Virus record (IMG/VR): IMGVR_UViG_3300023243_000009
Location: 74,668-138,667 of that record
Source of the DNA: a virus
DNA: 64,000 nucleotides
Strand: one strand, 5' to 3'
Shown here: positions 8,705-28,137 of the stretch, in pieces
Layout: each line of letters begins with the position of its first letter
Position numbering within the stretch: the first letter of the stretch is position 1
Translations under genes and position numbers: made by a program
The notes under the pieces: generated by a model
What the model was told of the DNA's origin: nothing
Seen by the model: only the letters and a program-made list of their open reading frames with translations
Database searches by the model: none

Positions 8705-10434
8705 ATTTTTAATTTTCTTTTAAACTCTGTAGCTAAATTATTATCCCTCATAAGTTTATTCATGTGTGTGTTTGCACATAACGCCGATTCCTGAATGATT
8801 CTGTGGCCAGATAATGTAATAGCTTCACTAAGGATGGATAAATTCATTCCGTATCTAAAAGAAGGTAAAGCTGTAGCACCATAGAGTGAATTCAAGAGTA
8901 TTTTCATAGTGTATTGCATTAGGTGATTGTATTCTCCAGCTTCTTTATCACCTGCTTTGTATGCTTCTTTCATACGGTTTTTATACAAAACACGTTCATC
9001 AAACCATTTTTTTAAAATAGTAGATAAAACAGATTCTTTATCGGTTCTAAACATTGAACCATTAGCGGAGACTGCTAATTTTCCATTTTCAATTATGTTA
9101 ATTAAATCTTTAACTTTGACACTAGTTTGTTGTCTCCTACCATTTTCAACTTCTAACAATTCATCTGGGTCTTTGGCTTTTAAATCATTGAGTCCTAGTC
9201 TATTGTTTCTATCATCCCCATCTATAATGCGGCCTATAAATGTTTCTTTACCTATATTTATAGTCATAATAATTGATGGATACAAAGAAGTTAAATCTTC
9301 ATCAAACATATATTTATACAAACCCGCTTTAGGGCAAAATAAAAAACCACCAGCATAATTATTTTTTTTCTGTGGGTTTGGCTCTTTAGGTGGTGGAATT
9401 ATACCTTTTGATAGTAAATAAGCTGAAATTGCTCCATCTTGGGTTTTACTGTTAGCATAAACTTCACTATAATTATGTTTTCCTTTATGTGATAAATTTT
9501 TGGTTAAAGATATATATTGGAGCTTTTCATCTAATTTTTGAAGTATTTCTACGTCTCGAAAATTGTATTTTATAAAAGTATGAATATCTTTTTGGAATAA
9601 TTGATCTAGATTTCCTTTATATTCAATTTTGCCTAAATTTACATACTTTGCCCCAATAGCATCTAATTTCCAACTTGGTTCATCTTTCCAACTGTATTTT
9701 TTATGTAATCTCATATAATCTAATGATTCCACACCAATTAAATCAACATATTGATCTTGTTTATAGAAATAATCATTATTTTTCTTGACATTTACCAATC
9801 CTAAAGGAGATAACATATCCGCTAAATTTTTACCTAACACATTACACATTCTATAATAAAGATAAGGAATGTCAAAAAAATCACTATTGTATCCCACTAA
9901 AATGTCTGGGTCTATTTCTCTAAAAAATTCTAAGAATTTATATAATAACTCTTTTTCGGTTTTAAGGGGAATTATTTTTGTATTCCCATTTTCAGTTAAA
10001 GTAACATTATTCTTTTTATCTAAAATTAAAATTACCCATTCATCCGGGGTTTTATCCCAATAAGCGATAGAAGTAATAGGCATAGGAGCACCTTCTATAT
10101 ACTCTTCAGTTAAAGCCCCACCAATTTCACACTCAATATCAAAAAATAGTTCTCTATGACCTACCGAAGGAGTATCATTAATCCCATATTTCTCAATAAG
10201 GTATTTTTGTTCCGCTTTCATTTTATTAAAATGTAGATTAGGTGTATTTTTATCCCATTTTTGAATTTTTTTCAAGGATTCACCACTTAAACCTTTATAA
10301 TTACCATCCCCAGGAGAACATACTTGGTAAGCATAATCATACCATTCTATTTCATCGTAACCCGCTTCATCCCATAAGTGGATTTTATATTTATTGTTTC
10401 CTAATCTAGTAGAATAACATTTTTTATAAGACAT
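8701..10434 (-). CDS. Family B DNA polymerase, N-terminal half (3'-5' exonuclease plus motifs A and B)
   Basis: FFDIEC, YNSDFFDIPY, YNFRDV exo motifs; DLTSLYPSII; KILLNSLYG. Confidence 0.95.
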   Translation of the reverse strand: MSYKKCYSTRLGNNKYKIHLWDEAGYDEIEWYDYAYQVCSPGDGNYKGLSGESLKKIQKWDKNTPNLHFNKMKAEQKYLIEKYGINDTPSVGHRELFFDIECEIGGALTEEYIEGAPMPITSIAYWDKTPDEWVILILDKKNNVTLTENGNTKIIPLKTEKELLYKFLEFFREIDPDILVGYNSDFFDIPYLYYRMCNVLGKNLADMLSPLGLVNVKKNNDYFYKQDQYVDLIGVESLDYMRLHKKYSWKDEPSWKLDAIGAKYVNLGKIEYKGNLDQLFQKDIHTFIKYNFRDVEILQKLDEKLQYISLTKNLSHKGKHNYSEVYANSKTQDGAISAYLLSKGIIPPPKEPNPQKKNNYAGGFLFCPKAGLYKYMFDEDLTSLYPSIIMTINIGKETFIGRIIDGDDRNNRLGLNDLKAKDPDELLEVENGRRQQTSVKVKDLINIIENGKLAVSANGSMFRTDKESVLSTILKKWFDERVLYKNRMKEAYKAGDKEAGEYNHLMQYTMKILLNSLYGATALPSFRYGMNLSILSEAITLSGHRIIQESALCANTHMNKLMRDNNLATEFKRKLKI

Positions 10435-12476: not shown

Positions 12477-13178
12477 TTAATGACTATCTTTTAAATTATT
12501 AGCCATTGCAATAGAGTCGAAGTATTCTTTTCTTACTTCTGGTTTTTCCCTAAATACACCTGAGAGTTCATTGGTGACCATTGATGCTCCTCTATGTCCT
12601 GTACCTCTACATGATACACAGGAATGTGATGCTATAATTGAAACTGCAACTCCGATATTTCCCTCGCATATCTTATTTATAGCCTGATGGATAGCCACAG
12701 TTAATTGTTCTTGAATTGCACCTCTACGTCCAAAGTGTTCTACAAGACGATTTAATTTACTTAAACCCACAACTTGACCCCCTTCACCCGGGATGTATCC
12801 TATATGGACTCTACCTAATATAGATTCGTGGTGGTGACTACACATACTTGTTAAAGGTATATTACATTCCAAAACCATCCCCTGATAACCATCTGAGGGG
12901 AAAGATGTAATTGAGGGTGGGGAATTATATCTCCCAGCCCATTGTTCTAAAACATATTTTTTAGCAATACGTTTTGGTGTTTCCATTGAATTTGGATCGT
13001 TTCTCCAATCGCATCTTAATGCATCTAGAAACTGACCGAATGCCGAGGCGGCATCCTCTATCATTTGTTGTTTTTCTAAATGGGATAAGGGAAAACCAGA
13101 GGCAACACCATTAGCAAATCCTTCTTTTACCACTTCTAACTCTTCGTGGATTTTTCTTCTATCGTTAACATTGCTCAT
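12477..13178 (-). CDS. folE: GTP cyclohydrolase I
   Basis: ETPKRIAK, SMCSHH, GLSKLNR, QEQLT, HSCVSCRG. Confidence 0.96.
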   Translation of the reverse strand: MSNVNDRRKIHEELEVVKEGFANGVASGFPLSHLEKQQMIEDAASAFGQFLDALRCDWRNDPNSMETPKRIAKKYVLEQWAGRYNSPPSITSFPSDGYQGMVLECNIPLTSMCSHHHESILGRVHIGYIPGEGGQVVGLSKLNRLVEHFGRRGAIQEQLTVAIHQAINKICEGNIGVAVSIIASHSCVSCRGTGHRGASMVTNELSGVFREKPEVRKEYFDSIAMANNLKDSH

Positions 13179-13326
13179 TTATATAACTTTTTATTTTATC
13201 TATTAAAACTAATACATCATCGGGGTCCATTGTTATTGCACAACAGACGTTAATATTCTCCTCTATTTCCTCCAATATACGAAGGGCTTCTTGCTTATCC
13301 AAATTAATTGTTGTATTTAAACATTA

Positions 13327-14214
13327 TCATACGCATCGGTCTTGCTCAAATGCTATAATGTGTGGGCGCCAAGTCATGCGGTATCCGTTATCTCTAACCC
13401 AATCAAATACTAAAGGGTATGATTGAAATAATCCCTCCCTTGTATCACCACTAGGCATAAACCACACTTTTTCTTTAATCCAGTCATTCATCTCATCTAC
13501 TGTATAAGCATCAGTCCAAGATGTTGTCCCGTAAGTTCTTTCATGTAATTTTTCTACTAACTGATTGATGAATTCTTTTATTTCAGCTAAAGCCACTTCA
13601 TCTTTTCCGTCCCATACAGGTTTTAAATGGAAATCTTGATGATAAACTATCGAATCAGCAATTGCATCTATATTTAACCTAAGTTTATTATGTTGTTTTA
13701 TCATTTTTTCATCCGTAATACCACCTTGAGGTGTTCTAACACCAACAACGGGGACACTATTACTAAACTTAGGACTAATGCTAAGCAAATGAATAGGATA
13801 ATCGGTAGCAAGAAAATGAGATCCCTCAGTTTCAATAGTAATATAAATATTTTTTTCATGTGCAAAATGTGTTAATTCATTTACTAAAGCAGCATGCATA
13901 GTAGGAGAACCCCCAGTAAGCATCATTTCTTTGATGTGGGGATTATCTTTATACATATCAATTATAGATTGGAAATTGTAAATTCCTTTCTCGGGGTGTA
14001 TCGATGTATAAAAAGAATCGCACCATCCACCTTCACCAAAATAACATCTGTGGGTACATCCTGTTGTACGTATAACTACTGTTGGGTATCCTGCTCTAGA
14101 TCCTTCTGATTGTACAGCGGTGTAAACTTCTACAATAGGTAAAACCTTATCATAGTCTGGTAATCGTTTTAATTGTTTTTGTTCCATAATTTTTTTAAGT
14201 GGTTTTTGTTTCAC
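13327..14214 (-). CDS. queE: 7-carboxy-7-deazaguanine synthase (radical SAM)
   Basis: VQSEG, RTTGCTHRC...WCDS, LTGGSP, TIETEG, SPK. Confidence 0.9.
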   Translation of the reverse strand: MKQKPLKKIMEQKQLKRLPDYDKVLPIVEVYTAVQSEGSRAGYPTVVIRTTGCTHRCYFGEGGWCDSFYTSIHPEKGIYNFQSIIDMYKDNPHIKEMMLTGGSPTMHAALVNELTHFAHEKNIYITIETEGSHFLATDYPIHLLSISPKFSNSVPVVGVRTPQGGITDEKMIKQHNKLRLNIDAIADSIVYHQDFHLKPVWDGKDEVALAEIKEFINQLVEKLHERTYGTTSWTDAYTVDEMNDWIKEKVWFMPSGDTREGLFQSYPLVFDWVRDNGYRMTWRPHIIAFEQDRCV

Positions 14215-14220
14215 TATTTT

Positions 14221-14685
14221 TTATTCGCAATAATAGGCAGCATTTTTTCCATGTTCCATGAACTTCACCTTAGTAACCCTAACTCTATTAAACGTTTCTG
14301 TTTTAACAAATACATTTAATTTACCAAAGATATACTCTGCGAATTTTTCTGCTCCTGTAGAAGGTATTACTCTTACCTGAGCAACTCCTGCTTCTCCCAT
14401 TTGTTTAAATGCTTCTACTTCAGGATCATCTTCTGCTACAATCAAGGTATGATCGAAAGTATAATCCATCCAAGCTTTTGGTTGTTTACCATCAATTAAA
14501 GTAGATGCGCGTTTCATTCCACCGAAATCCCAAACCCAATTCCTATCGTCTAATTCACCCTCAAAGTAAACTTTGAATGAAATTCCATAACCGTGTATGA
14601 ATTTACACATTGTACCCTCTGCTCTCCATTGACGGAATACAGTGCTGAATCCGTCGAATACTTTACTTGATTGAAATTTACCCAT
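14221..14685 (-). CDS. queD: 6-carboxy-5,6,7,8-tetrahydropterin synthase
   Basis: CKFIHGY, WVWDFGG, FDHT, AEKFA, VKFMEH. Confidence 0.85.
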   Translation of the reverse strand: MGKFQSSKVFDGFSTVFRQWRAEGTMCKFIHGYGISFKVYFEGELDDRNWVWDFGGMKRASTLIDGKQPKAWMDYTFDHTLIVAEDDPEVEAFKQMGEAGVAQVRVIPSTGAEKFAEYIFGKLNVFVKTETFNRVRVTKVKFMEHGKNAAYYCE

Positions 14686-15119: not shown

Positions 15120-15202
15120 AATTTATGTGTTAATATACAAAAGAAGACTCGCATTGGCAAGTCTTCTTATACATTTATTTGAGATATTGGATAAAATTAT
15201 TG

Positions 15203-15275
15203 TGGTCCGTATAGGAATCGAACCTATGACCTTTTCGTTATGAGCGAACTTCTCTACCAGCTGAGATAACGGACC
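15203..15275 (-). tRNA. tRNA-Met/Ile2 (CAT)
   Basis: GGTCCGT/ACGGACC acceptor, loop CT CAT AA, GGTTCGATTCC. Confidence 0.85.
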
Positions 15276-15337
15276 TTGCCTTTTTTAGAGTTTTTAGGAT
15301 AGAACTCAAGGACAGAACGACCTGTAAAACTATTTAG

Positions 15338-15408
15338 AAGCGGATTGAGGACTCGAACCTCGCCTCAGGGTTATGAGCCCTACATGCTGCCAATTACACC
15401 AAACCGCA
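15338..15408 (-). tRNA. tRNA-fMet-like (CAT)
   Basis: Anticodon stem with three G-C pairs (GGG CTCATAA CCC), 1:72 mismatch. Confidence 0.75.
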
Positions 15409-15411
15409 ATT

Positions 15412-15486
15412 TGGCGGTCTATGAGGGTTTCGATCCCTCTACTCTACCGTGACAGGGTAGCATGATAGCCAGTTCACAAATAGACC
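15412..15486 (-). tRNA. tRNA-Asp (GTC), encoded CCA
   Basis: CTACC CT GTC AC GGTAG; G73; T-loop GGATCGAAA. Confidence 0.9.
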
Positions 15487-15702
15487 GGTTTTGCTTAGTG
15501 AGATTACTAAGCTAGATTTTAACGGTTTTATTTCCTTTCAAACAAACTCATAAGTGTCTTACCACATGAAACAAAGTCAAATTACTGGGAGACTCTATTA
15601 CCCGTCTTTATTCCTCAGAGAGCGGCGTTAAGGATGTCCACTCTAGTACCCCCATTTTGTTTATAGACTCCATGGATGTCTGTAAGTATCTCTTACTTAT
15701 TG

Positions 15703-15775
15703 TGGAGTAGATGGGACTCGAACCCACATACTTTACCTTGCAAAGGTACTGCTAAGCCAATTTAGCTACAACCCC
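15703..15775 (-). tRNA. tRNA-Ala (TGC)
   Basis: G3:U70 acceptor pair, loop TT TGC AA. Confidence 0.9.
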
Positions 15776-15948
15776 AATTAATTAAAAACTCTTTGTCCAA
15801 ATTTCAGTTATGGAATTACGCTCCTTTGTTTCAGAGAGTAGATAACCTCTACAATAAACACAACTGCTGATACAGCTTACATATTACTTGAGGTATTTTA
15901 CAAGTCTGAATACTATTGTTTATCTTCAAGCAAAGAATTTTTAATTTG

Positions 15949-16020
15949 TATTCCTGGAGGGTATCGATCCCTCTACTCTACCGTGAAAGGGTAGTGACTT
16001 AGCCAGTTGTCGACAGGAAC
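15949..16020 (-). tRNA. tRNA-Glu (TTC)
   Basis: CTACC CT TTC AC GGTAG; acceptor GTTCCTG/CAGGAAT. Confidence 0.88.
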
Positions 16021-16026
16021 ATTCAG

Positions 16027-16108
16027 CGGAAGAGATAGGATTCGAACCTACAAAGCTTTTACACCCGACTGTTTTCAAGACAGCTTAACAACCATTGTCC
16101 ACTCTTCC
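16027..16108 (-). tRNA. tRNA-Ser (TGA)
   Basis: Loop CT TGA AA, long variable arm, G73. Confidence 0.88.
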
Positions 16109-16287
16109 AATTGTAACTTTTAGAACACCTTAGAGTTACCAACTAATTCGACAAAACGATTCGAATGGCATCCGCGCCCATCTGTTTAACAATCCAATAC
16201 TCGAAAGATATTGAGGTTTAATATTAAACAGACCCGTCATCCGTGTGCTTCGTTCCCTATCCTATGCATCGGAATCAGGCCGTTTTG

Positions 16288-16359
16288 AGCGAATAGAGAG
16301 AATCGAACTCTCGTCCTCTGGTTGGAAGCCAGATGTAATAGCCATTATACTACATTCGC
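16288..16359 (-). tRNA. tRNA-Gly (TCC)
   Basis: TCTGG CT TCC AA CCAGA; GCG acceptor, U73. Confidence 0.92.
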
Positions 16360-16566
16360 GTAATAATTAAATTTTTTGTACTCAATGTACATCATAACTG
16401 TTGTTGTGTAAACAGTGAGTTAAGTTTTTATAATATTACCATGTGTGCACTAGTAATAAATTGTTCTTTACTTAACCTCTACTCTCCCTAGTTTCTATTT
16501 CGAAATTCACCTAGCTATCTGAGATTTATATACCAGGGGATCATACCCTAGTCTTCATTTAATTTG

Positions 16567-16638
16567 AGCCTCCACAAGGAATCGAACCCTGTTAATCCGG
16601 GTACAAACCGGGTACATTACCATTTATGCTTTGGAGGC
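16567..16638 (-). tRNA. tRNA-Thr (TGT)
   Basis: CCCGG TT TGT AC CCGGA; GCCTCCA/TGGAGGC acceptor. Confidence 0.9.
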
Positions 16639-17062
16639 AAATATAAGAGAGGTTCGGGTCTTTCGAGGTTTCTAGAAATATCTGGGACTGGAGATAAACC
16701 TTTATCTTATTCCAGCTTGTCCTAGCTTCACTTACTCTCTTAATATTATAAGTTAGAATGGTTGTTTGAATCCCTTTTCAGTTCACCCTTGAACGTCTAA
16801 CTTTATATTTTACTTCTAATTCTACCCAATACTTCTGTATGGACTAGTATCTAAACTTTTAACGCGTATTAATTATTTAGCGTAGTTATTAAATAAGTTT
16901 TCTCTTATCAGCAGGGCCGGCATATCTTCCTTGGTTGTTTATACCTTGGTTTCAAATCCTTAGCTTACTTTAATAACAATCAGAAGCTCTTTATCCTTAC
17001 GGTCCCGTAGTTTTGGCTGCATACCAACTCCACAGTTAGGCCAGGGCTTTAAAGAGATTTTG

Positions 17063-17214
17063 TAGTCCTAGTTGGAATCGAACCAACCTTTGATAAGTTA
17101 CTTACTCTAATGCTTTAACTTTCTCTTCAAACTAGTATAAGAAGTGTTAAACCAAAAGCCGTAACGTTACCCCACTAGTAAGAGTAGGGGCGACCTACTA
17201 CTACATATAGGACT
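17063..17214 (-). ncRNA. tRNA-like RNA with a greatly expanded anticodon domain (152 nt)
   Basis: Perfect 7-bp acceptor AGTCCTA/TAGGACT, T-arm GTTGG TTCGATT CCAAC, ~110-nt interior. Confidence 0.7.
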
Positions 17215-17226
17215 ATTTTAATTTTG

Positions 17227-17329
17227 TAGCTATGTTAGGATTTGAACCTAATCCGGCTTTACAATACTAAGTGAACTTATCGTTAAACTTAACCTTGGAG
17301 AGGTGCTATCAACCAATGATCTCACAGCT
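17227..17329 (-). ncRNA. tRNA-like RNA with an oversized variable region (103 nt)
   Basis: Acceptor AGCTGTG/CATAGCT, T-arm TTAGG TTCAAAT CCTAA, D-like ATTGGTT, hairpin ACCT CTCCA AGGT. Confidence 0.65.
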
Positions 17330-17523
17330 ATATTTTTTGCACTAACAGTAACTAGCTTATCCTTTTAAATCTGTTAATACTTCGGAATCTAACCGCTCAT
17401 ATCTCAAGTCCAGCGTAAGGACTAATGCTTATATGTTCTTGATATGCAACCTTCTAGGTATAAAGTTCCCACCACTTCACATCTAGAGTAATAAGTCGTA
17501 GATGCTACTCGAGAAGTTTTTTG

Positions 17524-17605
17524 TACGTTTGGAGAGATTCGAACTCTCACACCTTAAGGCACTAGATTCTAAATCTAGCATGTCTACCAATTCCAACACA
17601 AACGC
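17524..17605 (-). tRNA. tRNA-Leu (TAG)
   Basis: CTAGA TT TAG AA TCTAG, long variable arm. Confidence 0.92.
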
Positions 17606-17610
17606 AATTT

Positions 17611-17640
17611 AATCTTATCCAATTATGTCAATGATCTTTT
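17611..17640 (-). promoter_or_regulatory. boxA-like leader motif, copy 2 (GATCATTGACATAATTGGATAAGATT)
   Basis: Near-identical to 21505-21533; both sit immediately 5' of a tRNA run. Confidence 0.5.
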
Positions 17641-17647
17641 ATTAATC

Positions 17648-17848
17648 TTAAAACCTAAGTTTTAATGTTTTTAATTCGCTTTCGATACGAATTATATTCT
17701 TATCAGTTAAGGGAATTTGTTTTTTTGTTTCCTTACAAGTTTTTGTTCCAGATTTTAATTGATCTGATAATCTTGAATAAACTGTTCTTCTTCTATCTTT
17801 TGCTGATAATAGCATACTATGTGAAACTCCATTACTCTTTGATGACAT
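17648..17848 (-). CDS. Hypothetical protein
   Basis: 66-aa ORF with its own promoter motif. Confidence 0.6.
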   Translation of the reverse strand: MSSKSNGVSHSMLLSAKDRRRTVYSRLSDQLKSGTKTCKETKKQIPLTDKNIIRIESELKTLKLRF

Positions 17849-17913
17849 AACTTCTCGGTTTTTATATTTATTACTTATACGTGAATATACGAAACATACC
17901 CCACGTATCCTAA

Positions 17914-18141
17914 TTATTCTTTAATTATTTTTACAATATCATGATCAGTTTCTGGTATTCTATTTTTTAGAAATACAAACCCATCATGTGTTCTTGTTCC
18001 TTGACCTAATCCTTTATCTAAATAACCTACAACATGATCTAGATATTCAGTATCAGTTGTTGGTCTCAAATACATTAACTTAGCACCGTGTGAACTGATT
18101 AAAATATCACCTTTTTTACAATTTCTTAAATCTACGCTCAT
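17914..18141 (-). CDS. Hypothetical protein
   Basis: 75-aa ORF; its promoter is duplicated with the one at ~17885. Confidence 0.6.
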   Translation of the reverse strand: MSVDLRNCKKGDILISSHGAKLMYLRPTTDTEYLDHVVGYLDKGLGQGTRTHDGFVFLKNRIPETDHDIVKIIKE

Positions 18142-18243
18142 AACCTTTATTGTTTTTAATGTTCGAACCTTACGAACACGTGAAGATACGAAACATACCC
18201 CACGTATCCTAATATTTTTGCAATTACTGTTTAATTGCTTTTG

Positions 18244-18316
18244 AGAGTGAGACAGGAATCGAACCCGTTAAAAATTGGTTTTGCAAACCAACTGCCCAAC
18301 CATGAACATCCCACTC
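18244..18316 (-). tRNA. tRNA-Cys (GCA)
   Basis: TTGGT TT GCA AA ACCAA; U73. Confidence 0.88.
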
Positions 18317-18319
18317 TTT

Positions 18320-18829
18320 TTACATACCTAAATATGGTTTCCATTCATCCGGGATAAATGTTGTCTTTTTTAATAACATCAAATAATGCGGCCTTTGGGG
18401 TTTTGGTATTGGTTTACCATATTCCTTTAAAGTTAAATCCGCTTTTTCATTGTTACATCTTTTACAAGCAGTAACTAAATTATCCCATTTATTAGGCCCA
18501 CCTTTAGATTGAGGTATAACGTGATCTAACGTTAGAGTCTTGCGGTTTTCACAACCACAATACACACACTCATACCCATCTCTTTTGAATATATTCTCAC
18601 GTGTTAGAGGTACTTTATGAAAATTCATCTTCACATAAGTGTGTACTCTAATAATAGAGGGTTTAAAGATTGTTAATTCTGGGTTTACTACACCAAATGT
18701 TTCTGGGTATTCCGTTACTACATCAGCATTTCCCTTATATGAGATTACGAATGCCCTTTCTGTAGTAATAATACTCCTAGCAATATAACTAGTGTCAATT
18801 ACTAAGGTTTTGTCATAACGGTTTTTCAT
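18320..18829 (-). CDS. HNH endonuclease
   Basis: RENIFKRDGYECVYCG...LTLDHVIP.SKGG...WDNLVTACKRCNNEK. Confidence 0.92.
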   Translation of the reverse strand: MKNRYDKTLVIDTSYIARSIITTERAFVISYKGNADVVTEYPETFGVVNPELTIFKPSIIRVHTYVKMNFHKVPLTRENIFKRDGYECVYCGCENRKTLTLDHVIPQSKGGPNKWDNLVTACKRCNNEKADLTLKEYGKPIPKPQRPHYLMLLKKTTFIPDEWKPYLGM

Positions 18830-18839
18830 GATTAAATAA

Positions 18840-19019
18840 CTATGGTTTATATTGTGTGTTTCTAAACGTTTTCCAATTTATCTCTTTACGTTTATTCCTA
18901 CCATTACATCCACTATTGGGACCACATAATGGACACCCTAATACTTGTCCGGAGTGGTACATTTTGTACGTACGAGAATTGGTTGTTGTTTGTTGAAATT
19001 TTTTTACTTTTTTTAACAT
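18840..19019 (-). CDS. Small basic Cys-containing protein (59 aa, not in ORF track)
   Basis: Manual translation MLKKVKKFQQ...GCPLCGPNSGCNGRNKRKEINWKTFRNTQYKP. Confidence 0.55.
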   Translation of the reverse strand: MLKKVKKFQQTTTNSRTYKMYHSGQVLGCPLCGPNSGCNGRNKRKEINWKTFRNTQYKP

Positions 19020-19093
19020 GTTTGCTCTGTTTTTAGGTTAATTTACCTAAAGAGCATCGAATTTTTTTTTCATTTTTAAATTATTTAATTTTG

Positions 19094-19162
19094 CACGCCA
19101 TCAAAGAATCGAACTCTGTCCTACGGGGTTGGAATCCGTTTGGTTACCATAACCTATGACGC
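19094..19162 (-). tRNA. tRNA-Trp (CCA)
   Basis: Loop TT CCA AC, G73. Confidence 0.8.
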
Positions 19163-19232
19163 ATATAGAAAAACTGTTCAGATTCAATCCTGCCGAAGCT
19201 GTCCAGATTGGGGATCCTGTTTTTCTATTTTG

Positions 19233-19305
19233 AACCCCTGCCCAGATTCAAACTGGGATTGGAAGGATAGAAGCCTACTGTTTTATTCAGTTAAACTACA
19301 AGGGC
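19233..19305 (-). tRNA. tRNA-Arg (TCT)
   Basis: Loop CT TCT AT; acceptor GCCCTTG/CAGGGGT. Confidence 0.8.
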
Positions 19306-19312
19306 ATTAATG

Positions 19313-19385
19313 AATTCCCGGAGAGATTCGAACTCTCAATCTCTCGATTCGTATTCGAGGGCATTGCCATTTATGCTACGGAAAT
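19313..19385 (-). tRNA. tRNA-Arg (ACG)
   Basis: CTCGA AT ACG AA TCGAG. Confidence 0.85.
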
Positions 19386-19407
19386 ATTTGGAGGTTTTTC
19401 CTTATTG

Positions 19408-19487
19408 TACCCGTGATAGGATTCGAACCTACAAGCCGAAGCAATCGCGTTTAAGACGACCATGTTTTCCAATTTCATCACACGGGC
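19408..19487 (-). tRNA. tRNA-Leu (TAA)
   Basis: Loop CT TAA AC, long variable arm GC TTCG GC. Confidence 0.9.
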
Positions 19488-19586
19488 ATAAAGCCAACCC
19501 CGTAGGTTAGCAGGACATCTTTAGGTAATGTCTTTGCAAGAATTTTCATCTCTGACCAATTCGATCACCCTTTGGGCGTCAATAGG

Positions 19587-19660
19587 GGTGTAAGGTGGGT
19601 TTCGATCCCACTACCCTTCGGATCACAACCGAACGCTCTTCCGATTGAGCTACAAACACC
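19587..19660 (-). tRNA. tRNA-His (GTG)
   Basis: TTCGG TT GTG AT CCGAA, G-1, C73. Confidence 0.9.
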
Positions 19661-19761
19661 ATATTTGTAAGGCTCCCACTTTCCTTACTTGTTAGTCTAA
19701 AGTTTTATCTTTGCAGAAGCAGGTGACTAAATTATCCTTTAACCCGAGTGGTTTTAAATAG

Positions 19762-19833
19762 TATCAATAGATAGGATTGAACCATCGACCTGTTCCATAT
19801 GAAAGAACCGCTCTACCACTGAGCTATATTGAT
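19762..19833 (-). tRNA. tRNA-Ile2/Met (CAT) with an irregular T-arm
   Basis: GTTCT TT CAT AT GGAAC; canonical AGCTCAGTGGTAGAGC D-arm. Confidence 0.75.
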
Positions 19834-19839
19834 GTTTTG

Positions 19840-19925
19840 AGGAAGAAATCGGAATCGAACCGAATGCCTTTTACAGCACGATTATCTTAGCAGGATACCC
19901 TAATCACCATCATAGTTTATCTTCC
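19840..19925 (-). tRNA. tRNA-Ser (GCT)
   Basis: Loop CT GCT AA, long variable arm. Confidence 0.88.
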
Positions 19926-19930
19926 TTTTG

Positions 19931-20003
19931 TCGAAGTGGTAGGTTACGATCCTACTACCTTTGTCGTATCAGGACAATGCTCTACCAATTGAGCTACACT
20001 CCG
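19931..20003 (-). tRNA. tRNA-Ile (GAT)
   Basis: TTGTC CT GAT AC GACAA; T-loop GGATCGTAACC. Confidence 0.88.
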
Positions 20004-20009
20004 GAATTG

Positions 20010-20083
20010 CTCCTCAGGTAGGGTTCGAACCTACTACCTACGCATTAACAGTGCGCCGCTCTAACCAGATGAGCTACTGAGGA
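20010..20083 (-). tRNA. tRNA-Asn (GTT)
   Basis: GCGCA CT GTT AA TGCGT; TCCTCAG acceptor, G73. Confidence 0.93.
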
Positions 20084-20090
20084 ATTTTTA

Positions 20091-20171
20091 GTTACGATTA
20101 AAGGACTCGAACCTTCATTGGACATATCTGCCGCTACTGCTCATGAGACAGTCAACGCACCTGCATCGTAA
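20091..20171 (-). ncRNA. Atypical tRNA-like RNA (CAT loop, no D-stem, long variable region)
   Basis: TTACGAT/ATCGTAA, ACTGT CTCATGA GCAGT, GAAGG TTCGAGT CCTTT. Confidence 0.6.
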
Positions 20172-20176
20172 TGTAA

Positions 20177-20252
20177 TGGTGGTACTGATTGGTATCGAAC
20201 CAACTACACCTAGATTTTCAGTCTAGTGCTCTACCGTTTGAGCTACAGTACC
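20177..20252 (-). tRNA. tRNA-Phe (GAA), encoded CCA
   Basis: CTAGA CT GAA AA TCTAG. Confidence 0.93.
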
Positions 20253-20339
20253 AAATAAGAATGTGGTGGGACCCGATGTAATTTAACCACACCCTTTATA
20301 CATTGTCCTAGGTTGTATAAAGGTACATCTTCACTATCG

Positions 20340-20419
20340 TGGGCGATGGTGGACTCGAACCACTCCCTTTCGGACGGAATTTACAGTCCCGCTGTCGTAT
20401 CCGAACGACTTTCAACCCC
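20340..20419 (-). tRNA. tRNA-Tyr (GTA)
   Basis: CGGGA CT GTA AA TTCCG, short variable arm CC GAAA GG. Confidence 0.85.
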
Positions 20420-20495
20420 CATTTTCTAATCTTAAAATAATCTTTACCAAGACTTTTACACCTTGTTTTATTTCTAACGTTTAAAACTAGAATTA

Positions 20496-20567
20496 GTTAA
20501 CGTACAAGAATCGAACTTGCTTCTCCCGGCTCATTGCCGGGCGTGGTCACCATTCCACTAACGCCAA
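20496..20567 (-). tRNA. Atypical tRNA with anticodon ATG (His-like), A33
   Basis: Full cloverleaf; CCCGG CA ATG AG CCGGG; C73. Confidence 0.6.
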
Positions 20568-20666
20568 AAACTATAATTAATTGGAACTACAATTCCTAAC
20601 CTCTATAGAGTAGTCTGTGTTTAGATCACTATTGTAGTAATGATTCTCTTCACCCAACTATTTTTG

Positions 20667-20737
20667 TACCTCCTGATGGAATCGAACCATCGCACTTTGC
20701 ATGTAAAACAAATACGCTACCATTACGTCAAAGAGGT
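20667..20737 (-). tRNA. tRNA-Val (TAC)
   Basis: TTTGT TT TAC AT GCAAA. Confidence 0.87.
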
Positions 20738-20750
20738 AAGTTTAATTTTT

Positions 20751-20815
20751 TAGTTATGATAGGATTCGAACCTATATCTTGCGGACCGCCATGTTAACCG
20801 TTACACCACACAACC
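20751..20815 (-). ncRNA. tRNA-like RNA lacking an anticodon loop (65 nt)
   Basis: GGTTGTG/CATAACT, D-loop AACGGTT, anticodon arm reduced to GCGG T CCGC, intact T-arm. Confidence 0.65.
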
Positions 20816-20847
20816 CCGGAAATTAATAACCTCAACTTGCAAATTTG

Positions 20848-20919
20848 TACCCCTGTTAGGAGTCGAACCTAACCCCACTGTTTAAAAGACAGTTGCCTAC
20901 ACCGGTTTGCTACAGGGAT
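20848..20919 (-). tRNA. tRNA-Lys (TTT)
   Basis: ACTGT CT TTT AA ACAGT. Confidence 0.88.
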
Positions 20920-21115
20920 AGAAGTAAATAAAAGATTGGTGTATCAATAACCTCCATTTAAATGTTTTGATATCATTACATTTAAACCTGTTTCACAGTT
21001 ACCCCTTTGGCTAAGAGAGCTTATTATGATATTAAGCTTAATCTTTTATTAAAACTATTGCGGACTCTTTTCGAACTTTGCGGGCTCGTATCATTCCTTC
21101 TTTTGATAGTTTTTG

Positions 21116-21187
21116 TCGGGTAGACAGGAGTCGAACCTGCCGCCTCTCGCTTCCAAAGCGAGCTTCTCACCTCGAGAATACTACCCG
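21116..21187 (-). tRNA. tRNA-Pro (TGG)
   Basis: CTCGC TT TGG AA GCGAG; CGG acceptor. Confidence 0.92.
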
Positions 21188-21254
21188 AATTAATCTACTT
21201 TTAGCCTGGTTATTTTAGCTAAGCCTTTTAGCCAGGTTATTTTGTAAATTATTG

Positions 21255-21326
21255 TTGGTCTGGAGAGAATCGAACTCCCATTAATTGAGTCAAAGTCAAA
21301 TGTAATAACCGTTATACCACAGACCA
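21255..21326 (-). tRNA. tRNA-Gln (TTG)
   Basis: TTTGA CT TTG AC TCAAT; U1:A72. Confidence 0.9.
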
Positions 21327-21414
21327 ATAATGTAAGAGTTGGGCTCTTACTACCTCAATTAAGCATATCAGCTGGACCATTATGCCAGCGTTCGAATCAG
21401 AATTGATAGTTTTG

Positions 21415-21501
21415 AAGAAGGTGTGGGATTCGAACCCACGGATCTTTTACAATCACTAGTTTTCAAGACTAGCACAATAAGCCAGACTCTGTCAACCTTC
21501 C
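21415..21501 (-). tRNA. tRNA-Ser (TGA), second copy
   Basis: CTAGT CT TGA AA ACTAG, long variable arm. Confidence 0.9.
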
Positions 21502-21504
21502 TTT

Positions 21505-21533
21505 AATCTTATCCAATATGTCAATGAACCTTT
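21505..21533 (-). promoter_or_regulatory. boxA-like leader motif, copy 1 (GTTCATTGACATATTGGATAAGATT)
   Basis: Lies between the promoter and the first tRNA; repeated at 17611. Confidence 0.5.
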
Positions 21534-21550
21534 TTTACTTTCTACCCCAT

Positions 21551-21582
21551 GAAGATACGAAATCTACTCCGGGTAACCTAAT
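21551..21582 (-). promoter_or_regulatory. Bacteroidota sigma70-type promoter of the tRNA array
   Basis: TTAGG-N~14-TTTCGTATCTTCA, matching the motif found upstream of many genes here. Confidence 0.6.
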
Positions 21583-21599
21583 TTTTTTGCATAAATTTT

Positions 21600-21634
21600 A
21601 AAAAAAAACCCGAATCTTTTCAGATCCGGGTTTT
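21600..21634 (-). terminator. Rho-independent terminator
   Basis: AAAACCCGGATC TGAAAA GATTCGGGTTTT TTTT. Confidence 0.85.
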
Positions 21635-21660
21635 ATATAAATGATATGTATTTTAAACTA

Positions 21661-27264: not shown

Positions 27265-28137
27265 CTACTTGTTATGTTGTGCAAGTATTTGTTTTACGTG
27301 TGCTTCTGCCACTTCGTAAGATACTGGTCCTGTTTCATCTGCATAACTCGCAGGATCAGGACGTCCTAATTTGATAAAGGCTTCGATACGTTCTACTGAA
27401 CTTGCTGATTTGTAATCTGAGTACCATTCTCCCTTCATAGAATTGTCATTACCATCAACTGAACCTATAAAAATTGGTTTATATGAAGTAAGTGTTCTTT
27501 TATAAACCTCGTCGAAGGTTATTCCAAATTCTTCACATAATATTTCTCCATCTTGTAATATTGTAAATTTATTACCTTTAATATAGGGTGTAAAATAACC
27601 TACTCTATCTGCATCCCAATTTCCTTCTCTAAAGGCTTTATCGTCTGCATCTCTAAACTCTTGTCGGCAATCAGGATAAACTTCGAAATCTCCAGCATGA
27701 ATCCCCATAGCGATATCACAATTTTCCCCTGTTCTATTTGCTATTGATAAGGCAACCGCTTGTGTAATAGAAGCAAATATTTTATTACGATTAGGAACAA
27801 CTGTTTCTTTCATGTTGTCGTTTTCATAATGCCCTTCAGGTACATCATTACCTCCTTCTACTAATGCTGAATCCAATAAATCTGATAAACCATCTAATTT
27901 AATTTGACGGTAAGTGATTTGATGGTATGTAAAAGTATTTGGATGTTCTGATTCCCCATGTCTGTTTAGATATCTTACTAATGATTTAGCTCTATCTAAT
28001 TCTACTCTGTGTTTTTGACCATAATCGAAGCTGATGGCGGTACAAGTGTCGTAATCTTTTAATGCTCTTAATAATAATGTGCTACTGTCCATTCCACCTG
28101 AGAGACTAACCACACAATGTTTTTTTGTTTTACTCAT
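27265..28137 (-). CDS. queC: 7-cyano-7-deazaguanine (preQ0) synthase
   Basis: SLSGGMDSS, FDYGQKH, TVVPNRN, GIHAGD, YPDCR. Confidence 0.93.
   Translation of the reverse strand: MSKTKKHCVVSLSGGMDSSTLLLRALKDYDTCTAISFDYGQKHRVELDRAKSLVRYLNRHGESEHPNTFTYHQITYRQIKLDGLSDLLDSALVEGGNDVPEGHYENDNMKETVVPNRNKIFASITQAVALSIANRTGENCDIAMGIHAGDFEVYPDCRQEFRDADDKAFREGNWDADRVGYFTPYIKGNKFTILQDGEILCEEFGITFDEVYKRTLTSYKPIFIGSVDGNDNSMKGEWYSDYKSASSVERIEAFIKLGRPDPASYADETGPVSYEVAEAHVKQILAQHNK

Follow-up and report, generated by a model that had tools for sequence, protein, structure and literature searches.

Stable RNAs other than transfer RNAs (tRNAs) have been known in a phage tRNA operon since T4, and to our knowledge the two T4 RNAs are the only well-known non-tRNA products of phage tRNA clusters described since the 1970s. 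Here we describe a 6.3-kb minus-strand stretch of the virus record IMGVR_UViG_3300023243_000009 in which 25 tRNAs and two to four odd tRNA-like genes alternate with 23 modules of 61-235 nucleotides (nt) that are free of open reading frames (ORFs). The window that we analysed, 64,000 nt at positions 74,668 to 138,667 of the record, forms the last 64 kb of this IMG/VR entry, which is 138.7 kb long and 85% complete; coordinates are those of the window, and every feature of the window given below lies on the minus strand. We think it likely that tRNAs and small RNAs share one operon here, or two operons split by an HNH insert, and that about 20 structured RNA genes yield products that are released by tRNA processing and play a role in trans at the interface of phage and host.

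The closest precedent is the pair of T4 RNAs called species 1 (rnaC, 139 nt) and species 2 (rnaD, 119 nt); the T4 precursor yields eight tRNAs together with the species I and II RNAs (PMC2330249). Like the modules described here, rnaC and rnaD are non-tRNA, ORF-free members of a tRNA cluster, share its strand and lie within 1-6 nt of the gene next to them (both abut tRNA-Arg); by position, as ORF-free genes that abut tRNAs within a phage tRNA cluster and on its strand, the modules are RNAs of the T4 type. The likeness extends to architecture, as rnaC, in which a T arm and closing stem enclose a large insert, is built on a tRNA frame like modules b and c below, and to the cluster itself, since the T4 tRNA cluster holds the homing endonuclease gene segB, which the HNH insert parallels. 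The T4 cluster ends with two such RNAs, whereas about 20 are interleaved with the tRNAs here; unlike rnaC and rnaD, moreover, most modules do not have the shape of a tRNA, pseudoknots occur in several, and the set varies by cassette from strain to strain. No homology to either T4 RNA was detected: blastn gave only T-arm-length matches, and nhmmer profiles of families A, B and C found nothing in the T4 locus.

The 23 non-tRNA modules were delimited by tRNA ends and by the boundaries of insertions and deletions in relatives, which came from scans of IMG/VR with neighbouring proteins and conserved words. The related arrays comprise close (L202, L207, L185, L210), middle (L194, L221-L223, L193, L199) and far (L052, L087) relatives. 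Folding was expressed as a z score of the minimum free energy against dinucleotide shuffles, with length-matched coding segments of the same window as controls, and the claim of the initial annotation that the spacers are not random was borne out: mean folding z was -1.42 in the modules (n = 23) versus -0.05 in the coding segments (Mann-Whitney p = 1.8e-5). When the first 22 nt were paired with the last 22 and the longest helix was compared with that of shuffled ends, a terminal helix was found at p < 0.05 in seven of the 23 modules and at 0.05-0.10 in three more (Fisher combined p = 4e-7); four further units are closed by a tRNA-type acceptor stem of 7-8 base pairs (bp). Compensatory changes relative to close relatives occur in six modules besides the families A, B, C and e2. 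Because a G-U pair, which the pairings tolerate, is C-A on the opposite strand, the constraint acts on one strand. The modules are conserved, structured and strand-specific. Each spacer is a different family; in a search for paralogy among the spacers, A, B, C and e2 were unrelated to one another, and each is present in a single copy in the window. A battery of distinct structured non-coding RNAs, as had been proposed, is thus supported alike by covariation, by the conservation seen in other phages and by a degree of conservation that exceeds the local background.

Four of the modules found families of their own, none with a match in Rfam. Family B (172 nt, 15776-15947; z = -3.4) has a closing helix of 12-16 bp and an invariant core, CUGUAUCAGCAGUUGUGUUUAUUGUAGA, a 20-mer of which occurs in 39 IMG/VR loci and on three contigs of metagenome-assembled genomes (MAGs). 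Among 21 distinct sequences both sides have changed in 13 of the 23 tested pairs, with 92% of cells pairing; none of 500 shuffles reached the observed values, and slid partners were only 35-55% paired. The closing helix and the 3' hairpin covary, and helix P2 shows only A-U to G-U changes and one invariant G-U, so that the constraint is specific to one strand. Just 10 of 40 copies are flanked by tRNAs and the others lie in intergenic gaps of 200-400 nt, so B is a free-standing RNA gene that some phages keep in their tRNA operon; no recurrent neighbour gene of B was found, and B is therefore no cis-regulator of a single gene family. Some copies are unusual. On the IMG/VR contig L217 there are two (9335-9511 and 9775-10003), about 260 nt apart and one of them strongly diverged, and on L214 (2651-2912) a T-arm-like hairpin (GGGTGTTCGAGTCCCC) is inserted in the 3' variable region of a B copy, indicating that modules can be nested.

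Family e2 (112 nt, 16639-16750) is built from a closing helix, UAGUGAAGCUG, a GGGUUU/AAACCC pseudoknot and CGAAAGACCCGAAG. It is known from about 70 loci, and its 18-mer word, AACCNCGAAAGACCCGAAG, is present in 66 IMG/VR loci; in 37 of these 66 a tRNA on the same strand starts 31-39 nt after the start of the word, the end of e2 lying 13-18 nt before that tRNA, while the tRNAs on the upstream side, which are of many identities, end 64-98 nt ahead of it. All seven pairs of the closing helix (P1) covary in 39 sequences, and the pseudoknot covaries at its two variable pairs (G-C/A-U in one, U-A/A-U/C-G in the other); 0 of 500 shuffles reached the observed covariation score.

Family A (215 nt, 15487-15701), marked by the invariant UUUCAUGUGGUAAGACACU and AAACCGUUAAAAUCUA, has an invariant 19-mer in 20 IMG/VR loci; an nhmmer profile finds 25 loci, and BLAST found no match in cultured phages. 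Wherever the locus is long enough A stands between two tRNAs, with constant spacing in most copies: the upstream tRNA ends about 130 nt before the word (most copies) and the next starts about 67-73 nt after it, the flanking pairs being Ala/Asp, Gln/Glu, Asn/Thr, Asp/Ser, Met/Met, Gly/Asp and Leu/Leu. Its ends are joined by a long-range pairing of the 5' segment GAGAU with the loop AUCUC of a 3' hairpin, for which we found five covarying versions (GAGAU/AUCUC, GAGGU/ACCUC, GAGG/CCUC, AAGAC/GUCUU and UUAGA/UCUAA), and the 3' stem exists in at least eight sequence versions. Two further elements of A, a 5' H-type pseudoknot and a stem in two parts that bears an AUAAA bulge, were read by eye, and each shows compensatory changes; the fold is only partial, as RNAalifold recovered few helices from a plain MAFFT alignment. 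The invariant core at 15553-15572 includes a mini-ORF, AUG UGG UAA (Met-Trp-stop), identical in 25 of 25 copies, which recalls minigenes but is probably coincidental with constraint at the RNA level. Family C (178 nt, 16109-16286) has a 21-mer that is present in five IMG/VR loci, and nhmmer extends the family to 12 loci; in five sequences both sides have changed in 9 of 33 predicted pairs, and the family stands between Phe and Asn tRNAs in L087 versus Gly and Ser here.

The remaining modules differ widely in how much their relatives tell us. ThrGly (206 nt, 16360-16565), closed by AAUUAAAU/AUUUAAUU and containing five internal hairpins, is 75% identical to its counterpart in L185, with both sides changed in 12 of 46 pairs, closing helix included, and none broken. 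Comparison with L202 gave the same picture for module a (193 nt, 17330-17522; 75% identity; both sides changed in 8 of 41 pairs, with no pair broken) and for SerGln (87 nt, 21327-21413; two hairpins, z = -1.8; 72% identity, 5 of 20, none broken). ProLys_a (64 nt, 21051-21114; terminal helix p = 0.007) has a homologue in the far relative L052 with compensatory changes in the closing and inner stems, and its neighbour ProLys_b (131 nt, 20920-21050; 11-bp terminal helix, p = 0.002; z = -3.4) is 88% identical in L202. Met3His (101 nt, 19660-19760) has a 79-nt conserved core and is about 84% identical in L185, L202, L199 and L193; both sides have changed in 4 of 20 pairs, and three pairs are broken in at least one sequence. 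ArgTrp (69 nt, 19163-19231), with a 10-bp closing helix ATAGAAAAAC/GTTTTTCTAT (terminal helix p = 0.001), is 96% identical in L194, the differences being confined to a loop. The conserved hairpin of Met2Met1 (61 nt, 15276-15336), which directly precedes a tRNA and was found at seven loci, changes from GAGUU/AACUC to AGAUU/AAUCU in L194.

For seven modules there was no homologue, or no informative one, among the fetched loci. Module e1 (71 nt, 16751-16821), closed by AAGUUAGA/UCUAACUU, is kept in L202, L185 and L194, the last of which has e1 without e2. HisTyr (75 nt, 20421-20495; z = -2.6) has a 13-bp terminal helix (p = 0.002) and no clear homologue among the fetched loci; HisLeu (97 nt, 19488-19584; four hairpins, z = -2.6) and ValHis (98 nt, 20568-20665; z = -2.0) had none. 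GlnPro (66 nt, 21188-21253), for which no homologue was found, has an 8-bp terminal helix (p = 0.023) and is unsupported by homologues. TyrPhe (86 nt, 20253-20338) is the weakest case, with z = -0.9, a terminal helix that is not significant and no homologue, and the ORF-free module d (235 nt, 16822-17056; z = -0.65) is likewise unsupported, with no homologue and no counterpart in L202. As for the six stems that the initial annotation had offered as examples, five are real: AAAAATTCTTTG/CAAAGAGTTTTT covaries across 21 homologues, AAAACTAT/ATAGTTTT, which closes ProLys_a, shows the compensatory change in L052, AGAGAG/CTCTCT forms the closing helix of one family, with covariation in 7/7 pairs, and GAAAAAC/GTTTTTC and AAAGATT/AATCTTT are significant terminal helices kept in relatives. 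The sixth, AAAACG/CGTTTT in family C, had no support in the alignment.

A further group of units is shaped or framed like a tRNA. The 65-nt RNA at 20751-20815 scores 49.7 bits with the Rfam tRNA model and has acceptor, D and T arms, and a 3-bp stem with a 3-nt loop substitutes for the anticodon arm; ARAGORN recovers it only when the threshold is lowered, and then assigns a 2-nt 'anticodon'. In L087 its mini-stem GCG/CGC is replaced by GCC/GGC, and the acceptor stem is entirely replaced with pairing kept. When a pattern scan was made for further tRNA-like genes lacking an anticodon, its only matches were the record of L087 itself and an ordinary tRNA-Asn. The tRNA-framed module PheAsn (20084-20176), also called by ARAGORN only at a lowered threshold, has a 7-bp acceptor stem, a T arm, a long variable arm and a poor D arm, a CAU triplet conserved at the position of the anticodon loop, and compensatory changes in the T stem and variable arm across four homologues. 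At 19834-19929 lies a divergent class II tRNA-Ser(GCU)-like gene that default ARAGORN misses and ARAGORN -ps80 calls as Ser(gct); the Rfam tRNA-Sec model scores 32.6 bits at 19841-19925 (threshold 47), and comparison with L052 shows compensatory changes in acceptor and T stem. A tRNA-Cys-like gene (18244-18317) scores 46.7 bits with the same model, also under the threshold of 47.

Modules b (108 nt, 17222-17329) and c (165 nt, 17057-17221; z = -2.3) are larger units of this kind. In b, acceptor, D and T arms surround an oversized middle; in c, a 7-bp acceptor stem and a T arm are combined with a branched insert of about 100 nt where the anticodon arm would be. Compared with L202 and L185, b is 96% and c 92% identical, and the substitutions in c, acceptor stem included, are compensatory or yield G-U pairs. 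Taken with e, these modules are 91-96% identical to L202 versus about 76% for the adjoining HNH gene, which points to strong constraint above that background. In contrast to the tRNA-shaped RNA at 20751-20815, families A, B, C and e2, ThrGly, a, d and the other spacer modules had no match to the Rfam tRNA model (RF00005) even at E = 10. The count of 26 tRNAs in the initial annotation was about right, given the 25 called by ARAGORN and the Rfam tRNA-like genes at 20751-20815 and 18244-18317. The 25 standard tRNAs run from 21501 to 15202, and CCA is not encoded. One of them, tRNA-His at 20496-20567, has the unusual anticodon AUG (ARAGORN) and is not present in L194; it and tRNA-Tyr (20339-20420) are missed by the Rfam tRNA model even at E = 10.

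The modules come and go as units. One and the same module can be found between different tRNA pairs in different phages with its spacing unchanged, and lake-metagenome strain variants skip ThrGly (joint 16359>16563), ValHis (joint 20563>20662), GlnPro, ProLys_a and e2, with the joints at or within a few nt of tRNA ends; one strain variant has 30 other letters in place of ProLys_a. The 884-nt ORF-free gap proved to be six separate cassettes (a, b, c, d, e1 and e2) whose presence and absence are independent. The array of L194 is collinear yet without most spacers, and in both L194 and L052 just 3-8 nt separate the same tRNAs (5 nt in the case of Glu, Ala and Asp in L052). Placement between differing tRNAs and whole-module presence or absence in related strains identify the modules as accessory cassettes. 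When the whole array was compared with cultured phages by BLAST, matches were at the level of tRNAs and the spacers were shared by none. The sole metatranscriptome run (X24) consists of contigs of a relative, shows no strand, ends or level, and may carry DNA; one contig of 231 nt spans module a (17329-17526), and GlnPro is missing from this relative (joint 21187>21247).

GOLLD and ROOL are complex ORF-free RNAs of phage genomes that often lie beside tRNA arrays. We searched Rfam 15 with the whole region and two sub-regions, at gathering thresholds and at E <= 10, and retrieved only tRNAs and noise; the classes named for this check in the initial annotation (GOLLD, ROOL, HDV/theta, twister, pistol and hammerhead) were all sought and not found. 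For GOLLD and ROOL there was no match at E <= 10, including searches restricted to 0.8-1.2 kb. GOLLD, ROOL, known self-cleaving ribozymes, riboswitches and YrlA are therefore excluded as far as covariance models see. Theta ribozymes, which resemble that of hepatitis delta virus (HDV), adjoin phage tRNA genes and are tied to tRNA end formation (PMC10879173); they start with a G-C-rich P1 helix, whereas the modules start A-rich, and the spacers have no HDV-family match in Rfam. A loose HDV-type descriptor gave a single match, at 15885-15798 inside B, that depends on weak G-U pairs and is at odds with the covarying P5 hairpin, and we rejected it on account of this conflict with the covarying helices of B. 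The Y RNAs of the YrlA type (Rfam RF02553) join a long stem of both RNA ends to a tRNA-like module; their best match here scored 24.8 bits against a threshold of 69 and fell across the ordinary tRNA-Ile/Asn. No Ro/TROVE gene (PF05731) was found in the 138.7-kb record, an absence that is uncertain in a record 85% complete.

In the catalogue that Fremin et al. (2023, PMC10690425) drew from IMG/VR, the main text describes thousands of unnamed RNA candidates of 29-151 nt (mean 67), with 8,495 alignments. The catalogue shares with our analysis its source and its use of covariation in phage intergenic regions, and it includes tRNA-like candidates; its entries are not individually described, and arrays of tRNAs filled with RNAs are not described in its main text. 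In how many modules it has, how diverse they are and how they behave as cassettes, and in its four defined families, the array goes beyond what we found in print.

How might such RNAs be made? About 20 independent and mostly unrelated RNAs lie between the tRNAs, and each folds alone. In most of them the two ends are brought together, whether through a terminal helix, an acceptor stem of the tRNA type or, as in A, pairing of the 5' end with the loop of the 3' hairpin. Host RNase P would cut the long transcript at each tRNA 5' end, and RNase Z, or RNase E with exonuclease trimming, would act at each 3' end; these cuts would free the intervening RNAs as discrete molecules, whose closed ends would shield them from exonucleases. 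Once released, they may act in trans by binding or diverting host proteins or RNAs, or in counter-defence. Release by tRNA 5' and 3' processing is plausible, and we propose it because the modules abut tRNAs within a few nt, keep the same spacing between different tRNA pairs and have the T4 precedent. The cassette pattern, together with the fact that tRNAs can do without the modules, suggests a role at the phage-host interface rather than in tRNA maturation.

Several points weigh against this proposal. Transcription, processing sites and stable products of the array are matters that we infer, as are co-transcription, processing and stability of the individual modules, and the X24 contigs, which come from a related phage, cannot establish expression. 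Folding statistics are all that speaks for GlnPro, ValHis, HisTyr, TyrPhe, HisLeu, d and e1, and two of these, TyrPhe and d, are indistinguishable from background. Release that depends on tRNAs cannot be the general mode of B, which lies outside tRNA arrays in 30 of 40 loci. The functional class of the modules is a guess, no partner protein or target having been identified.

The spacers might instead be cis-acting processing aids, either insulators against misfolding of tRNAs or sites for RNase III, E or P, degraded afterwards and with no function in trans. The fixed short distance of e2 and Met2Met1 before a tRNA would fit such a role, as would closing helices that isolate each unit, and the long closing helices, rich in A-U and reaching 16 bp in B, could serve as sites for nucleases. 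We nevertheless regard this as unlikely, since the closely packed tRNAs of L194 and L052 show that the spacers are dispensable for tRNA maturation; in addition, invariant cores of 19-28 nt, pseudoknots and loop-loop pairings exceed what an insulator needs, B lies mostly away from tRNAs, and no two spacers are of one family. Another reading is that the units are DNA-level mobile cassettes with ends like those of miniature inverted-repeat transposable elements or attC sites, perhaps moved by HNH, in which RNA structure is incidental. Presence/absence polymorphism with sharp ends, the terminal inverted repeats and the HNH gene inside the array all speak for this, and T4 SegB homes on tRNA T-arm sequences (PMC2330249). 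It is a rather improbable account of the structures themselves, however: tolerance of G-U puts the constraint on one strand, a recombination site has no use for internal pseudoknots or conserved loops, and the terminal helices covary instead of holding one recognition sequence. Mobility at the DNA level, perhaps aided by HNH, may well coexist with RNA function.

It could also be argued that the spacers are mostly decayed tRNA genes and neutral filler, with hairpins that are leftovers or chance. The units at 20751-20815 and 20084-20176 and modules b and c are clearly tRNA-derived, such arrays gain and lose tRNAs quickly, and the seven modules without an informative homologue would be open to this explanation. 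For at least ten modules it is already refuted, and for the set as a whole we consider it very improbable: A, B, C and e2 covary and are widely conserved, the Rfam tRNA model misses them as well as ThrGly and a, and even the tRNA-framed units surpass the neighbouring protein gene in conservation, with changes that are compensatory or give G-U. Each of the three alternatives accounts for some of the observations and is contradicted, for the well-supported modules, by how complex and strand-specific the conserved structures are and by relatives without spacers. On balance, a mixed operon of tRNAs and trans-acting small RNAs remains the reading that we favour.

The array itself has clear limits. 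All its genes lie on the minus strand between two strong intrinsic terminators, in keeping with the single transcription direction first noted: the terminator of the upstream unit (21605-21634; a 13-bp stem containing GC, then a T run) marks where the tRNA/non-coding RNA transcription unit begins, the other (15141-15168; a 12-bp stem and T run) where it ends, and no strong minus-strand terminator was found inside. The boxA-like motif reported behind a promoter did not hold up, as matches to GCTCTTTAACAA-like sequences with up to two mismatches are at chance level (8 in the whole window versus 9.2 expected), with none on the transcribed strand near the array start (21500-21650). Nor did the promoter in its usual form: a sigma-70 scan gave fewer matches than in shuffles and no consensus promoter stood out. 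What does precede the first tRNA of each half is a conserved 25-nt motif, a candidate promoter or leader as read from the sequence, with consensus CATTGACATA(T/A)TTGGATAAGATTAAA and ending 0-3 nt before that tRNA. The first copy, CATTGACATATTGGATAAGATTAAA (21502-21526), stands directly before tRNA-Ser, in a stretch that aligns at two places in L202, and the second (17608-17633) precedes tRNA-Leu(TAG). A separate motif of about 37 nt (ATTAGGATACGTGGGGTATGTTTCGTATCTTCACGT and variants) occurs at 18177-18213, 17877-17913 and 21545-21581, ahead of small ORFs and ahead of the array; judged by sequence, it is a candidate phage-specific promoter unlike the sigma-70 consensus.

The statement that the spacers contain no ORF held for the modules and failed at 17606-19092, where a protein-coding insert carries four ORFs and the tRNA-Cys-like gene: an HNH endonuclease of 169 amino acids (aa) (18320-18829; PF01844/PF14279) and three small ORFs of 59 aa (18840-19019), 75 aa (17914-18141) and 66 aa (17648-17848). 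The HNH endonuclease may drive the mosaic gain and loss of adjoining cassettes. Genes flanking the array include FolE, QueD, QueE, QueC and a family B polymerase; FolE, QueE, QueD and QueC, of the preQ0/7-deazaguanine pathway, lie at 12477-14685, directly downstream of the array, and nearby at 27265-28137. The phage is uncultured, and the DNA runs that contain the sequence are salt-lake metagenomes. It is a large T4-like phage whose host is probably a member of the Flavobacteriia, which fits the presence of one of the RNA families on a MAG contig labelled Lutibacter.

At least four families spread over dozens of uncultured phage contigs are thus available as RNA classes with sequences, boundaries and partial structures and with no entry in Rfam, and in annotation the 'spacers' of phage tRNA arrays should not count as empty. 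The locus also suggests tRNA processing as a general route for releasing small RNAs. A bolder possibility, which we put forward only tentatively, is that phage tRNA operons are a general platform for expressing and processing a large set of trans-acting RNAs, in which A, B, C and e2 would found new RNA classes, swapped to counter host defences or to retune host translation, and the anticodon-less and tRNA-framed units would be scaffolds or decoys for tRNA-targeting nucleases. If that were true, the folds of A, B, C and e2 would match the complexity of ribozymes, aptamers or protein-sequestering RNAs, and they would be exchanged like genes for anti-defence proteins. The presence and absence of modules among strains points to accessory functions between phage and host, where RNA-based counter-defence or host takeover would be expected.

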